This document shows, in pieces, positions 39,638 to 45,929 of a DNA stretch of 46,062 nucleotides. Where the stretch lies: the NCBI GenBank assembly GCA_011364975.1, contig RDOE01000019.1, positions 1-46,062 of the forward strand, given 5' to 3'. Each line of letters starts with the position of its first letter. Positions within the stretch are counted from its first letter, which is position 1. The notes beneath the pieces are model-generated. The model searched no databases. It saw only the letters and a program-made list of their open reading frames with translations, and had not been told where the DNA came from. The position numbers were made by a program, and so were the translations under genes. This DNA is from Promethearchaeota archaeon (lineage in GTDB: Archaea; Asgardarchaeota; Lokiarchaeia; Sigyniarchaeales; SOKP01).

Positions 39638-41620
39638 ATGTCAGAAGAAGAGAAGAAAATGGAAAGTATCTTAACTGAAACGAGAATCTTTGATCCTTTA
39701 AAACTTAACAAGAAATTTGCTAAAACTGGTATCTCAACCGATGAATATAATAAACTTTACAAACGATCCATTGAAGATATGGAAGGATTCTGGGGTGAGC
39801 AAGCGAAATCCCTCGATTGGTTTAAACCTTATACTAAAGTATGGGAAAAAACAGATCTTTTTCCGGGAAAGTGGTTCGTTGGGGGAAAAATCAACGTTGC
39901 TTACAACTGCCTTGATCGTCATGTGAAAAAAGGAAAAGGAGAAAAAATAGCGTTAATCTGGGAAGCTGATGAACCTGGACAAGCTAAAACTTATACTTAC
40001 AAGGAATTACTTGCCGAAGTAAATAAAGCGGCTAATGGTATGAAAAAACTTGGTTTGAAGAAAGGAGACCGTGTCACCATATGGCTCCCGATGATTCCGG
40101 AACTTACAATTATTATGCTAGCTTGTGCCCGAATTGGTGTTATCCACTCTATCGTGTTTGGTGGATTCTCTAAAGAGGCTGTAAAAGATAGAATTGAGGA
40201 TTCCAATTCAAGACTACTCTTTACTAGCGATGAGACTGCTCGAGCTGGAAAATTCTATCCAAAAATGAGTGATGTAGCAGAAATGATTGATGATGTTCCC
40301 ACAATCGAGCATGTGATTGTTGTAAAGCGCACTGGGCGTGAAGTAGCTCATACTAAAAAAGATATCTGGTATGATGATTTTATTACTGGAATGAGTGAAA
40401 AATGTGAGTCTGAACCCATGGATTCTGAGGACACCCTTTTTATCCTCTATACAAGCGGAACCACAGGCAAACCAAAAGGTGTAAAACACACCACTGCAGG
40501 ATATATCCTTTATACTTCTTATACACACCGCATAGTCTTTAACTATCACGAAGGCGATGTTTGGTATTGTACTGCAGACATAGGATGGATCACCGGACAT
40601 TCCTACATAGTATATGGACCATTAGCTAACGGAGCGACAACTCTTATGTTTGAGGGTGTTCCAACATATCCAGATGTAAGTCGATTTTGGGATATTGTTG
40701 AAACTCATAAAGTGACACACTTCTATACGGCTCCTACCGCTATTCGTGCATTGATGCGTTTCGGGGAAGAACCCGTTAAAAAACACGATTTAAGTACTCT
40801 AAAAGTTTTAGGAACTGTGGGAGAACCAATAAATCCAGAGGCATGGGTATGGTATCATAAAGTAGTTGGTAAAGAGCATTGTCCAATAGTCGATACTTAT
40901 TGGCAGACTGAGACTGGGGGGTTTATCATGACTCCTATAGCAACTGCTACTCCAACCAAACCAGGTTCTTGTTGCTTACCCTTTTTGGGTATAAAACCTA
41001 TAATTTTTGACTTGGAAGGCGACGAAGTTACAGAACCAGAAGAGGGGGGATATTTTGCTATGGCACAGCCTTGGCCAGGAATGCTTAGAGATGTATGGGG
41101 CGATACAGAACGGTTTAAATCCACATATTTAACAAAATATCCAGGCTATTATTATACGGGAGATGGTGCCCGTCGAGATAAAGATGGTTATTATTGGATT
41201 TTAGGTAGACTTGATGATGTTATTAAAGTTTCAGGCCATAGAATTGGAACCATGGAAGTAGAAAGTGCCATTGTATCTCATCCAAAGGTAGCAGAAGCTG
41301 CAGTAGCACCTTTTCCTCATAAAATTAAGGGACAAGCAATTTGGGCGTTTGTAACTTTATTAAGTGGTGTTGAAAAATCTGAAGCCTTGAAAAAGGACAT
41401 TACAATGCATGTTAGGAAAGAAATTGGACCTGTATTTCAGCCTGATGTCGTACAATTTGCTGATGATCTTCCAAAGACGCGTAGTGGAAAAATTATGCGT
41501 CGGATTTTGAAAGCGATTGCATCCGGTACTGAAATTGGAAATGTCACTACCTTAGCGGATCCTTCCGTTGTAGATGCTTTACTTGAAGAGCGCAAGAAAT
41601 TGGATGTTGAAATTGGTTAA
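39638..41620 (+). CDS. acs: AMP-forming acetyl-CoA synthetase
   Basis: [61 protein letters not shown]. Confidence 0.98.
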   Translation: [660 protein letters not shown]

Positions 41621-41627
41621 AAAAATC

Positions 41628-41654
41628 ATTTTTTAATTTTTATTTTTTCTTTTT
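41628..41654 (+). terminator. Oligo-T tract after acs, putative archaeal terminator
   Basis: Several T runs directly after the stop codon. Confidence 0.4.
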
Positions 41655-41821
41655 ACACTTATTAAAAATCATTATCTCTAATGTTTTTAATTTTCATCAC
41701 TATAGCAGTTTGATCTCTCATTCGAAGATATTAAAATATATTAATCTTTAAATTCCTAAGATTCACTATTCAGAGGATTCAACATATCATATTTTTATTA
41801 TTTATTTCAATAAATAATAGT

Positions 41822-42577
41822 ATGGAAGAAGAAAAAAAGATAGATAGAAAGTTTAGTAATCCTATTTTGGTAATTTTGACATTATTTGCTACTGTTATTC
41901 AAATGCCTTTTTTATTTTGGCCCTCGGGAACACTATCTTGGTTGGAAGGTTGGATATATTTAGTAATTTTTTTCATTTCATTCAGTCTTATATTTATTGT
42001 TTTAAATCATAAAAACCCGGAGATTTTAATCAATCGCATGAAGATGAAAAAGGAATCGATCCGAAAAAAGAAAGAGAAGGTTACTGATGATAATAAGATC
42101 ATAGTAAAAGCGTCTGGAACAGATAAAATTATACTCCCTCTCTTCGGAATTTTTTTCTTAGCGGTATTTGTTATTCCTGCTTTTGATAGAAGATTTAATT
42201 GGTCAACAATTTGGATTTGGTCAGAAATAATTGGTTTTGTGTTATTACCTCTCTCTTTCTATATTATTTATCGTGTAATGCTTGAAAACGCTTATGCTTC
42301 TAAAGTTTTGGATATTAGAGCGGATTCAGGTCAAAAACTTATCGATACAGGGCCTTATGCAATTGTGAGACATCCTATGTATTCTGGGTTTGCTCTGATG
42401 GTTATTTCAATAGCTTTAGGGTTGGGTTCATGGTATGCGCTTTTCCCCGCTATTCTAGCAATTATATTTTTAGGCATCCGAATTAAATATGAGGAAGCAA
42501 TGCTTATGAAAGGTCTCGAAGGATATAAGGAATATAAGAAAAAAGTTAAATTCAAATTAATACCTAAGATTTACTAG
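41822..42577 (+). CDS. ICMT/PEMT-family integral membrane methyltransferase
   Basis: TM helices, EN, QKLIDTGPYAIVRHPMYSG, RIKYEEAML...GYKEY...KLIP. Confidence 0.9.
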   Translation: MEEEKKIDRKFSNPILVILTLFATVIQMPFLFWPSGTLSWLEGWIYLVIFFISFSLIFIVLNHKNPEILINRMKMKKESIRKKKEKVTDDNKIIVKASGTDKIILPLFGIFFLAVFVIPAFDRRFNWSTIWIWSEIIGFVLLPLSFYIIYRVMLENAYASKVLDIRADSGQKLIDTGPYAIVRHPMYSGFALMVISIALGLGSWYALFPAILAIIFLGIRIKYEEAMLMKGLEGYKEYKKKVKFKLIPKIY

Positions 42578-44633: not shown

Positions 44634-44640
44634 GAGGTGT

Positions 44641-45729
44641 TTGAATAAATTGGTAAAAGATTGGACTGCTTCCGTAAATAGAATATTTAGAACAATATCA
44701 GGATCAAAAAGAGTTGATAAAGTTCCATTTCTTGCATTCGCCGGGGAACAAATGATTTGTCGAGTAACCGGAAAAACTGTGAAAGAATTATATAGTTCCC
44801 CAAAGGTTTATGCTAATGCTATTATAACCACGTTTGAGTTTTTAAATACCGATTCTATAAATGTTCCAAGTGCCTACGCAGGACCAAGCGAAGCTTTAGC
44901 ATTTGCGGAAGCGAACAATAAATTAGATGCAATTAAATGGTTTGATTATAAACCTCTAATGTGTAAACAAGGAGAAATTTGTAAATCTGAAGAAGATATT
45001 GAAAACCTGGAAATTCCAGATCATAGTAAGAATAATTTATGGAAAAATTCCTTACTAGCAGCAAAAATGATTAATGAAAAAATTAAATTTCCTCAGGTTA
45101 TGAGTTTAAGTATTTGGTCTGTTGTTCAGGAGTTGCGTGGCATAGAAGCCTATAAGGATATGCGGCGAAATCCGGATTTGTTATTAAAACTATGCGAAAA
45201 AATTTATGAATCTCAAATGGATATTTATGAGAATTGGCTTGAAATTGTAGGCATGCCTCCTAATGTTTTTATTGCAGGTTACTCATTTAACCGACACATG
45301 ATGAGTTTTCAAGATTCTATGCGCTATGAAGGGCAGTTTATTAAGAGGATGATGAATAAAATACAAGTTCCTTTCATGCTTCATAATTGTGGAACTTCTC
45401 CATACTTTACGGAAGTCGTTAAAGAAATTGACTTTATTGCCGTGAATGGAAGTCATCCGTTAGATATTGAATATTGGATTGACTTTAAAAAGAAATATCC
45501 AAAAATCACAATAATAGGCGCTAATATTGACGTGAGTCGAGAAATGCTCACAGGAACTCCTTCTGATGTTGAAGAAAAGGTAAAAGAAAACATCATAAAC
45601 TTGGCTCCTGGGGGTAGATATATTTGTTGCCCCGTTTGTAGCTTACCATGGGGTGTATCCATTCCCAATATCTTAGCGATTCCAAAAGCAATTGAGAAAT
45701 ATGGACATTATCCTATAAAAATAAATTAA
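44641..45729 (+). CDS. Uroporphyrinogen decarboxylase superfamily methylcobamide methyltransferase (MtaA/MtsA/CmuA-like)
   Basis: URO-D fold features (GANID...LTGTP..V; GGRYI), Zn-ligand-like LHNCG plus CCPVC. SD-like GAGGTG before the TTG, 7 bp after the corrinoid gene. Confidence 0.85.
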   Translation: MNKLVKDWTASVNRIFRTISGSKRVDKVPFLAFAGEQMICRVTGKTVKELYSSPKVYANAIITTFEFLNTDSINVPSAYAGPSEALAFAEANNKLDAIKWFDYKPLMCKQGEICKSEEDIENLEIPDHSKNNLWKNSLLAAKMINEKIKFPQVMSLSIWSVVQELRGIEAYKDMRRNPDLLLKLCEKIYESQMDIYENWLEIVGMPPNVFIAGYSFNRHMMSFQDSMRYEGQFIKRMMNKIQVPFMLHNCGTSPYFTEVVKEIDFIAVNGSHPLDIEYWIDFKKKYPKITIIGANIDVSREMLTGTPSDVEEKVKENIINLAPGGRYICCPVCSLPWGVSIPNILAIPKAIEKYGHYPIKIN

Positions 45730-45773
45730 AAATTAAAATTCATCCAAATATATTTTCCTCCCTCCTTTTTTAT

Positions 45774-45929
45774 TAGATCCGAAATGGGAAAATAATACGA
45801 AGAATTTTGAAAGCGATTTCTTCAGGTACTGGTATTGATAATGTCATCAATTTAGCGGATTCTTCTGTAGTATATGCGCTTCTTGAAGAACCAAAGAAAA
45901 TGGATATTGAAATAGTTAAGAAAAATTAA
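45774..45929 (+). pseudogene. Degenerate remnant of the acs 3' end
   Basis: 45780-45929 translates RNGKIIRRILKAISSGTGIDNVINLADSSVVYALLEEPKKMDIEIVKKN*, versus Acs [46 protein letters not shown] (33/46 identical by hand). Preceded by an in-frame TAG, with no start codon. Confidence 0.92.

Follow-up and report, generated by a model that had tools for sequence, protein, structure and literature searches.

How does a housekeeping gene come to have two ends? In a 46,062-nucleotide (nt) contig of a lokiarchaeal genome (Promethearchaeota archaeon, GenBank assembly GCA_011364975.1, contig RDOE01000019.1), referred to in its entirety as the window, the acetate–CoA ligase gene acs is intact, and a diverged second copy of its last 47 codons lies downstream of it, behind four genes. 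These encode, in order, an ICMT-like membrane methyltransferase, a ferredoxin-domain protein, a corrinoid protein and an MtaA-like methyltransferase. Our results support the proposal made in an initial annotation of the DNA, that foreign DNA entered the 3' end of acs, brought a replacement end with it and pushed the older end downstream. A homology-anchored import of the kind termed homology-facilitated illegitimate recombination, or C-terminal displacement, is the explanation of the locus that we consider probable, by a modest measure. We denote genomes by G-numbers (G000 being the source genome), loci by L-numbers, contigs by C-numbers and public sequencing runs by X-numbers. The window is the whole of contig C105 of G000, a metagenome bin of 3.74 Mb in 200 contigs (completeness 99.25%, contamination 6.09).

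A diverged copy of the acs 3' end

The gene in question (39638..41620, plus strand) encodes an intact protein of 660 amino acids (aa) with the Pfam domains ACAS_N, AMP-binding and AMP-binding_C. It scores 981 bits against NCBIfam model NF001208 (cut-off 657) and 950 bits against the equivalog model TIGR02188 (cut-off 725), and is the single true acs of G000, the next AMP-binding paralog being 30% identical. A repeat search of positions 39000-46062 returned one direct-repeat family, 41475-41642 and 45775-45942, with 168 nt at 75% identity and a start-to-start distance of 4300. Alignment with MAFFT found no similarity upstream of about 41474/45774, so that the repeat starts abruptly, and a fading of similarity in the A/T-rich flank past the stop codon. 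When positions 45600-46062 were compared with the 3.74-Mb assembly by BLAST, the only match besides the segment itself was the acs 3' end (76% over 158 nt, E 8.3e-26); likewise, tblastn with the peptide of the second copy returned only itself and acs below E 0.09. The diverged direct copy at an offset of 4300, as first annotated, is therefore borne out by repeat search, alignment and BLAST alike.

The first copy (41474..41642, plus strand) is the current end of acs and comprises codons 614-660, the stop codon and about 22 nt of 3' flank; we infer that it is the imported replacement. The second copy (45774..45942, plus strand), hereafter the remnant, comprises codons 614-660 plus 3' flank and reads, between two stop codons, IRNGKIIRRILKAISSGTGIDNVINLADSSVVYALLEEPKKMDIEIVKKN. 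Its first codon is TAG (45774-45776) where acs has AAG (41474-41476), a 1-nt deletion directly precedes the old stop in the pairwise alignment, and an A-run followed by T-runs trails both copies. All of these had been noted at the outset; the count of 33 retained residues also stands, out of 45 aligned positions and not the 46 given. The longest identical run between the two copies is the 15-nt ATTTTGAAAGCGATT. Segment 45774-45942 is best read as a scar without function of its own, the former 3' end of acs, a reading that shares the qualified confidence we place in the explanation as a whole.

Public contigs span both junctions

Since the window makes up an entire contig in a metagenome bin with 6% contamination, and stops 120 nt past the repeat, the structure might be a product of assembly or binning. 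Logan contigs from public runs address this directly. The left junction, between acs and the ICMT-like gene, is spanned by record 2 of X1 (41480-43751) and record 11 of X14 (41444-42421), and the right junction, between the MtaA-like gene and the remnant, by record 7 of X1 (45433-45872) and record 31 of X4, which covers 44442-46062 plus 633 letters beyond the window end. X1 is possibly the source sample of G000, and X4 and X14 come from other studies, so that runs from three studies yield contigs across the two junctions. Because both are bridged in this way, the repeat structure is not a misassembly, the danger to which the initial annotation had pointed. Moreover, a repeat at 75% identity cannot be collapsed or created by an assembler, and three other public assemblies show the same junction. 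We give an artefact of assembly or binning next to no credence. A BLAST search of the assembly for another contig overlapping the window end found none.

The two ends were alleles of different lineages

Comparison of acs and the remnant by the Nei-Gojobori method over 42 codons showed differences at 16.0 of 30.0 synonymous sites (0.53) and 14.0 of 96.0 non-synonymous sites (0.15), which supports the initial suggestion that the copies diverged as coding alleles before one of them decayed. The corresponding values for partial acs copies in two relatives are 0.40 and 0.02 over 57 codons (G021) and 0.42 and 0.02 over 75 codons (G005), and in neither case is the remnant more similar to the acs of its host genome than to that of other species. 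Since the differences are mainly synonymous, the two ends appear to have been alleles from different lineages. Duplication of a target site followed by decay predicts a ratio of at most about 2, so the data fit an imported end instead. This synonymous-rich divergence is found at acs in G000, G021 and G005 and at two further loci of G000, on contigs C33 and C148, described below.

Long-lived paralogs would also diverge in a synonymous-rich manner, and the remnant could accordingly be what is left of a tandem acs paralog that decayed. However, no second full-length acs-type gene, the finding that the initial annotation had named as fatal to its proposal, occurs at this locus in the relatives searched. 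Every extra acs copy consists of the last 13-77 codons only, several of them, the remnants of G000, G021 and G019 (b), start 9-45 nt from the stop codon of a cargo gene, and sites empty of any insert are common. We therefore regard a decayed paralog as highly improbable.

The remnant probably lies at the native position of the acs end

Empty sites also bear on which of the two ends is the resident one. In 11 same-genus genomes (G056, G048, G051, G004, G002, G005, G042, G017, G047, G008 and G012) acs is directly followed, at 261-2313 nt, by an ABC-transporter gene, which is the arrangement that the initial annotation had suggested looking for. The survey covered 25 stretches, of which 13 have no ABC match inside the stretch; in G021:C143 the match lies 5.4 kb past the remnant. 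None of eight same-genus relatives examined with their flanking sequence carries the cassette genes or a second acs piece beside acs. The DNA downstream of acs in relatives is homologous to contig C80 of G000 from about base 160, and then to contig C5. C80 starts some 25-29 codons inside the ABC-transporter gene, which in relatives begins MNLE... 179-214 nt past the acs stop. The window in turn ends 143 nt past the old stop of the remnant with ATGAAGTTATCTTATT, a weak candidate for the start of this gene (46047..46062, plus strand, five codons visible before the contig end), and C80 would then adjoin C105. Homology between the 120 nt past the remnant and intergenic DNA of relatives reaches only to about 45959.

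Judged by what follows acs in relatives, the remnant would occupy the position of the native acs end relative to the ABC-transporter gene. This place beside the native downstream gene argues that the remnant, rather than the intact end, is the resident, the intact end being presumably the donor's. The old 3' end has thus been kept at its ancestral position, downstream of the new end and of the foreign genes.

A junction shared with distant lineages

We scanned species-representative genomes with the MtaA-like protein and obtained 35 loci. Three of these (L095, L096 and L099) have the order acs, 255 nt, corrinoid gene, MtaA-like gene, a spacer of about 45-60 nt and an acs remnant starting at codon 611-617. 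Their junction aligns with that of G000 through the spacer and the start of the remnant, including TTAG at the first codon. They lack the ICMT-like and ferredoxin-domain genes, and their remnants have stop codons of their own. The event is thus not private to this genome, and the junction of MtaA-like gene, spacer and TTAG-remnant has a single origin, the remnants of the three loci being orthologous to that of G000. Because L095, L096 and L099 share it with the gene pair as sole cargo, the primary event would have been the insertion of a two-gene module at codon 614. The spacer itself (45730..45773, plus strand), within the shared junction, is 78-80% identical to those of L095, L096, L099 and L102 and 70% identical to that of L103 (G054). 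Four further loci or genomes (L101, L111, G053 and G055) have acs followed by the corrinoid and MtaA-like genes with no detectable remnant; a candidate remnant after the MtaA-like gene of G055 was rejected, its Smith-Waterman scores of 21-28 lying inside the range of 200 shuffles (maximum 36).

The four genes are a composite

The domains of the four genes are as initially described (PEMT/ICMT, 4Fe-4S, B12-binding and URO-D by Pfam). The further claim that they form one cassette did not hold. Three records carry only the corrinoid and MtaA-like genes before the same junction, and for this reason the four genes are not one cassette; the ICMT-like gene, the ferredoxin-domain gene and the pair each occur separately elsewhere. 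The insert is a composite, in which the corrinoid and MtaA-like genes form a mobile two-gene module, and the four genes should not be annotated as an operon-like unit of common origin.

The module (about 43935..45731, plus strand) recurs with sharp borders in relatives. It consists of the corrinoid protein gene (43992-44633, plus strand; Pfam B12-binding and B12-binding_2) and the MtaA-like gene (44641-45729, plus strand), whose product scores 65.7 bits against Pfam URO-D (cut-off 23.9). Its best scores against MtaA/CmuA methylcobamide methyltransferase models, 35.7 and 32.8 bits, fall far short of the respective cut-offs of 244 and 235, so that its sequence places it in the URO-D superfamily alone, and it is at best weakly MtaA-like. 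Copies of the module at 84-89.5% nucleotide identity occur in 13 other same-genus genomes. Ten of the 11 loci fetched do not adjoin acs; their flanks differ and represent at least 10 other contexts. The left border falls between 9 and 91 nt upstream of the corrinoid ATG and the right border about 5 to 80 nt past the final stop.

Relative to the order acs–corrinoid–MtaA-like–remnant, the ICMT-like and ferredoxin-domain genes lie in a secondary insert (41649..43936, plus strand). The window matches the L095 spacer up to 41648 and again from 43937, and about 166 nt of the 255-nt spacer between acs and the corrinoid gene have been replaced by 2.29 kb with these two genes. Copies of this spacer were also sought on either side of the ICMT-like and ferredoxin-domain genes of G000, and no match exceeded chance. 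The PEMT/ICMT-family gene (41822..42577, plus strand; 251 aa; Pfam PF04191 and PF04140) scores 67.7 bits against the NCBIfam isoprenylcysteine methyltransferase model, under its cut-off of 160. A homolog in G024 (L091; 72% at the amino acid level, homology spanning window positions 41842-42576) adjoins the corrinoid and MtaA-like genes at a non-acs site, without the ferredoxin-domain gene. The latter gene (42906..43745, plus strand) encodes a Cys-rich protein with a C-terminal 2x[4Fe-4S] domain (Pfam Fer4 families); the open reading frame (ORF) can be called from GTG 42828, and ATG 42906 fits the homolog. That homolog, in G055, is 76% identical in nucleotides over window positions 42897-43758 and forms a single-gene insert in other synteny (L069 4642-5494, contig C126), splitting stretches that lie 115 nt apart on contig C64 of G000.

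The acs–corrinoid spacer has also received other DNA. In G053 it holds a gene for a TIR-domain membrane protein, found in G055 as well, and in G053 this gene is flanked by a duplicated piece of spacer of about 35 nt (L084 6930-6985 and 8506-8616). Here the duplicative insertion is repeated on a small scale.

The module is younger than its hosts

Between G000 and relatives, synonymous differences are saturated both in acs (0.70-0.79) and in the upstream gene for a 639-aa protein (0.69-0.78). The corrinoid and MtaA-like genes differ far less, at 0.22-0.46 for all relatives except G024 (0.50-0.56). Against L095, L096 and L099 in particular, acs differs by 0.72-0.74 and the MtaA-like gene by 0.22-0.25; a further core gene of the window has 75-77% amino acid identity to this clade and 85% to G053. 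As a control, within the three loci acs differs by 0.09-0.27 and the MtaA-like gene by 0.17-0.19 at synonymous sites, so the MtaA-like gene is not generally slow at such sites. Taken together, the control and the low divergence of the module indicate that module, spacer and remnant moved between lineages long after these had split. On these sequence comparisons, the module is younger than the genomes that carry it.

Given that the same junction sits in lineages with distant core genes, we entertained the possibility that module and remnant are mobile together, the remnant serving as right and acs as left homology arm for double-crossover homing into a naive acs. The remnant is consistent with this in one respect. 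Overall it is 68-72% identical between G000 and the L095/L096/L099 clade, with 78-83% over the spacer and the remnant's first 46 nt together and 62-68% over the remnant's last 102 nt (Fisher p 0.01-0.05 in three non-independent comparisons), which suggests a crossover near ATTTTGAAAGCGATT. In addition, junction pieces stay with the module at non-acs sites: G054, one of the 11 fetched same-genus loci, and L102, from a separate genome-contig set, both retain the spacer, and G054 also the first ~35 nt of the remnant. However, the identity step is only marginally significant, the intact acs end shows no matching drop in divergence, and the same-genus module copies away from acs (10 of the 11 fetched) are without a full-length remnant. 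We thus consider such joint homing quite unlikely. We also looked along the intact acs of G000 for a step that would betray recombination, and the synonymous difference proved flat over the gene.

Repeated insertion downstream of acs

Searching the DNA of 42 genomes of the genus with the acs 3' end, and inspecting the loci fetched, revealed extra partial copies in four further genomes; this search has false negatives, the acs genes of G012 and G053 having been missed by it and recovered by other searches. In G024 (L041) two remnants (2481-2550 and about 3340-3412) accompany a 469-aa beta-helix protein and a VapBC-like pair (PIN and MazE-like). G021 carries genes for an 825-aa TPR/CN_hydrolase protein and a 323-aa hydrolase, with a remnant of codons 603-660 (L050 1884-2057). 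G019 has two remnants (L051 1413-1508 and L052 2330-2373) and G005 one of codons 584-660 (L049 4806-5036). In G024, G021, G019 and G005, acs is thus separated from a remnant by cargo other than that of G000, the kind of variation for which the initial annotation had proposed a comparison, and the region downstream of acs is a recurrent insertion target in the Promethearchaeia/Lokiarchaeia genomes of this group.

That one gene end was hit repeatedly, that direct repeats bracket the insert and that the insert restores the gene would all be expected of site-specific integration, with the acs 3' end as attB, an attP that carries the replacement end, and an integrase since lost or acting in trans. 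Three other breakpoints fall at or near ATTTTGAAAGCGATT (where G019 remnant a and G024 remnant b begin and where the G054 junction piece ends), and it is here that the identity of the remnant to L095/96/99 drops from 78-83% to 62-68%. Against a fixed core stand the starts of the remnants themselves. No two of the seven remnants, which come from five genomes, begin at the same codon (~584, 603, 614, 623, 625, 646 and 648), most of them extending through the stop into the 3' flank, and the conserved PKTRSGK segment, initially put forward as the crossover site, is accordingly not a fixed site.

The search for recombinases points the same way. Pfam scans found no integrase or transposase domain in the four window genes or in 19 cargo and flank proteins of relatives, in agreement with the initial remark that no integrase was visible. 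Genome-wide, G000 has a single match to PF00589 (tyrosine recombinase), on another contig (C52), and none to PF00239 (serine recombinase). The cargos are small and built of independently placed modules whose borders vary by tens of bases, and unrelated genes bear the same scars with a single small gene as cargo. We consider site-specific integration unlikely. No joint of the whole insert, as in an excised circle, was seen in four runs, and contigs cannot show absence of such a form. One low-depth contig of X14 (a single record) joins 45771 back to 44638 with 7 letters between, a would-be tandem or circular form of the MtaA-like gene and spacer only.

Several observations concern variation around the locus. 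Public contigs matching the window at 95% or more diverge from it at 41790/41801, 42692/42758, 43768, 45832 and 45884. These points lie near the borders of the ICMT-like gene, the ferredoxin-domain gene and the remnant, and hint at strain variants with other neighbours. The acs match reaches a contig end in nine relatives (G003, G004, G009, G015, G019, G020, G022, G024 and G026), and in G007 and G017 acs is in two pieces or has an internal stop within the contig. Frequent assembly breaks at or near acs are as expected if populations are polymorphic there.

A proposed mechanism for displacement of the acs end

In the homology-anchored import that we favour, DNA from another lineage, starting inside acs and carrying extra genes, would have recombined into the resident gene. 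The left crossover would be homologous and lie inside or just past acs; the right end would have been joined within the last ~47 codons of the resident acs by illegitimate joining. During later spread, an existing remnant could alternatively have paired with a naive acs end. The gene would have kept a complete, selected 3' end, the old end being left to decay. The primary insert would be the corrinoid/MtaA-like pair, the ICMT-like and ferredoxin-domain genes having entered the acs–module spacer at a later time. Both the recombination mechanism and the assignment of the donor end are what we infer from these patterns.

Several points weigh against this explanation. We found no donor with the exact arrangement of G000, in which microhomology at the joint would show, and all genomes compared are metagenome bins. 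The intact acs end of G000 (last 60 codons) differs from L095/96/99 by 0.71-0.75 at synonymous sites and is no closer than the rest of the gene; an incoming acs arm, if there was one, is not visible now, and the later insertion of the ICMT-like and ferredoxin-domain genes may have overwritten it. A recombinase acting in trans would be compatible with the absence of its gene from the locus. In G021 a species-specific 3' flank is common to both copies of the acs end, a pattern better explained by gene conversion or by a very close donor than by a distant one. In G005 an 'empty' acs lies on one contig and the remnant on another; with contamination at 8%, this bin may be a mix of two strains. Identities to sister genomes gave no clear answer as to the native end in G021 and G005, at 0.89-0.95 for both ends.

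Similar scars elsewhere in the genome

Self-comparison of G000 by BLAST gave 56 nearby direct repeats of 60-600 nt. Three of the 56, those of acs, C33 and C148, are asymmetric: one copy closes a long ORF, and no ORF covers the other. On C33 (L130, 255-2230) a TPP-enzyme gene (255-1361) is followed by a 204-aa ORF and a remnant (2066-2230), with synonymous and non-synonymous differences of 0.59 and 0.12. On C148 (L131, 10723-12822) a gene for a 343-aa protein (minus strand) is accompanied by a 135-aa ORF and a 440-nt remnant, the differences being 0.78 and 0.19. Both remnants contain stop codons, and each small ORF belongs to no assigned family. Most relatives have no cargo at the C33 locus; G001, G023 and G024 appear to have further partial copies downstream of the gene. 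Recurrence of the signature at two genes besides acs suggests that the mechanism is general, and it can be searched for as synonymous-rich remnants of gene ends. A broader proposal is that genes are gained here without a recombinase, cargo arriving behind an allelic 3' end and the displaced end then serving as a portable arm for homing into a distant acs, with acs, C33 and C148 as its footprints; we regard this extension as doubtful.

A separate element recurs in arrays in relatives. A conserved dispersed repeat, about 40-90 nt long, with the core TTTTCATTGAAATCAGACGCTGAATTTACCTTTCCATCC and in many cases a short hairpin after it, borders single-gene units, with copies at L051 142-236 and 1260-1338; L052 311-404 and 1397-1490; L092 8081-8128, 10361-10437, 11423-11475 and 12310-12384; and L042 824-896 and 2135-2209. 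L061 has five copies, and G000 eight (contigs C35, C6, C85 and C121), none of them in the window. In G048 the repeat brackets the corrinoid/MtaA-like pair, and in G022, G046 and G019 the arrays lie downstream of acs. The repeat is absent from the window (best nhmmer match E 1.4) and from L095, L096 and L099, and it matched no Rfam family. It could be part of an integron-like cassette system or a regulatory element.

The upstream flank of acs

DNA upstream of acs is likewise variable. A block at 33859..39443, holding a 102-aa ORF, an Rce1-like gene and a gene for a 1248-aa protein with C-terminal CN_hydrolase, has no counterpart at this place in most relatives, whose alignment with the window skips from about 33820 to about 39443; acs is thus bordered by variable DNA on both sides. 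The 825-aa TPR and CN_hydrolase protein that is cargo between acs and a remnant in G021 and G019 is a homolog of the C-terminal part of the 1248-aa protein. An Rce1-like gene precedes acs in G056 and G048.

The gene at 31939-33858 (minus strand), a conserved neighbour of acs, encodes acetyl-CoA hydrolase/transferase domains and a C-terminal GNAT acetyltransferase. Pat-type regulation of Acs acts by lysine acetylation. The A10-motif lysine of acs, which falls in the PKTRSGK segment at the repeat start, is a site at which the product of this gene could regulate the enzyme; the remnant keeps part of the segment.

Comparison with known systems

Integrative elements and genomic islands enter the 3' ends of tRNA or protein genes and supply a replacement end. 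As in such elements, direct repeats of the target 3' end bracket the insert and the gene is intact; in contrast to them, the locus has no integrase, its crossover is not fixed and its cargo is one to four ordinary genes of independent modules. According to excerpts of Wu et al. 2022 (PMC8813620), the Asgard integrative elements described so far integrate at tRNA genes, and the gene-exchange elements reported there are viruses and large integrative elements of this kind.

Two other systems bear comparison. Replacement flexible genomic islands are exchanged through homologous recombination in flanking core genes, as set out in part of Lopez-Perez et al. 2014 (PMC4033161), and resemble the acs region in placing a hypervariable island beside a conserved gene with differing content at one site in relatives; a pure double-crossover replacement, however, leaves no duplicated gene end. 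Integron cassette arrays have been reported in Archaea too (excerpts of Ghaly et al. 2022, PMC9668308). There, small promoter-less or single-gene units are added at a fixed site and push older ones back, and the single-gene units downstream of acs in some relatives are flanked by a conserved repeat of ~70 nt. The window differs in having neither IntI nor an attC-like repeat: no recombinase lies near the locus, and the ~70-nt dispersed repeat is absent from the window. As for the cargo, MtpC/MtpA of Methanosarcina, as outlined in part of a preprint (bioRxiv 10.1101/548461), is a two-component corrinoid methyltransferase in which a corrinoid protein is likewise paired with one URO-D-family methyltransferase, whereas the URO-D protein of the window falls far below the MtaA cut-off (35.7 against 244 bits).

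Gene exchange in Asgard archaea is little known, and this locus offers a concrete record of gene gain that can be dated, with a hot spot next to acs and a two-gene corrinoid methyltransferase module that has spread between lineages saturated at synonymous sites of core genes. Its scars point to incoming DNA anchored by homology to a housekeeping gene. A systematic search for such scars could reveal which lineages gave and which received genes, and at what rates, among the closest archaeal relatives of eukaryotes. Among the matches listed, our literature search returned nothing on homology-facilitated illegitimate recombination in archaeal genomes, and the literature searched held no acs-linked islands in Lokiarchaeia.

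The closest likeness is to bacterial toxin loci. 'C-terminal displacement' of Rhs genes was reportedly described by Jackson et al. in 2009. For the effector-immunity arrays of the type VI secretion system (T6SS) of Vibrio cholerae, displacement by homology-facilitated illegitimate recombination has been proposed, with the Rhs case as a comparable outcome (Kirchberger et al. 2017, PMC5361080, in excerpt). From those excerpts, the T6SS and Rhs loci share with ours a conserved upstream anchor, the entry of a new 3' part together with genes, an old end kept downstream as an orphan, strings of orphan ends after repeated events and the lack of an integrase. The setting differs, since there the variable toxin tips and immunity genes are bacterial and under diversifying selection, whereas here, in an Asgard archaeon, they are conserved parts of housekeeping genes (acs and a TPP-enzyme gene) to which the cargo bears no relation. 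Displacement of a gene's 3' end is thus known in kind; the case recorded here is from Asgard archaea, at a hot spot of repeated insertion.

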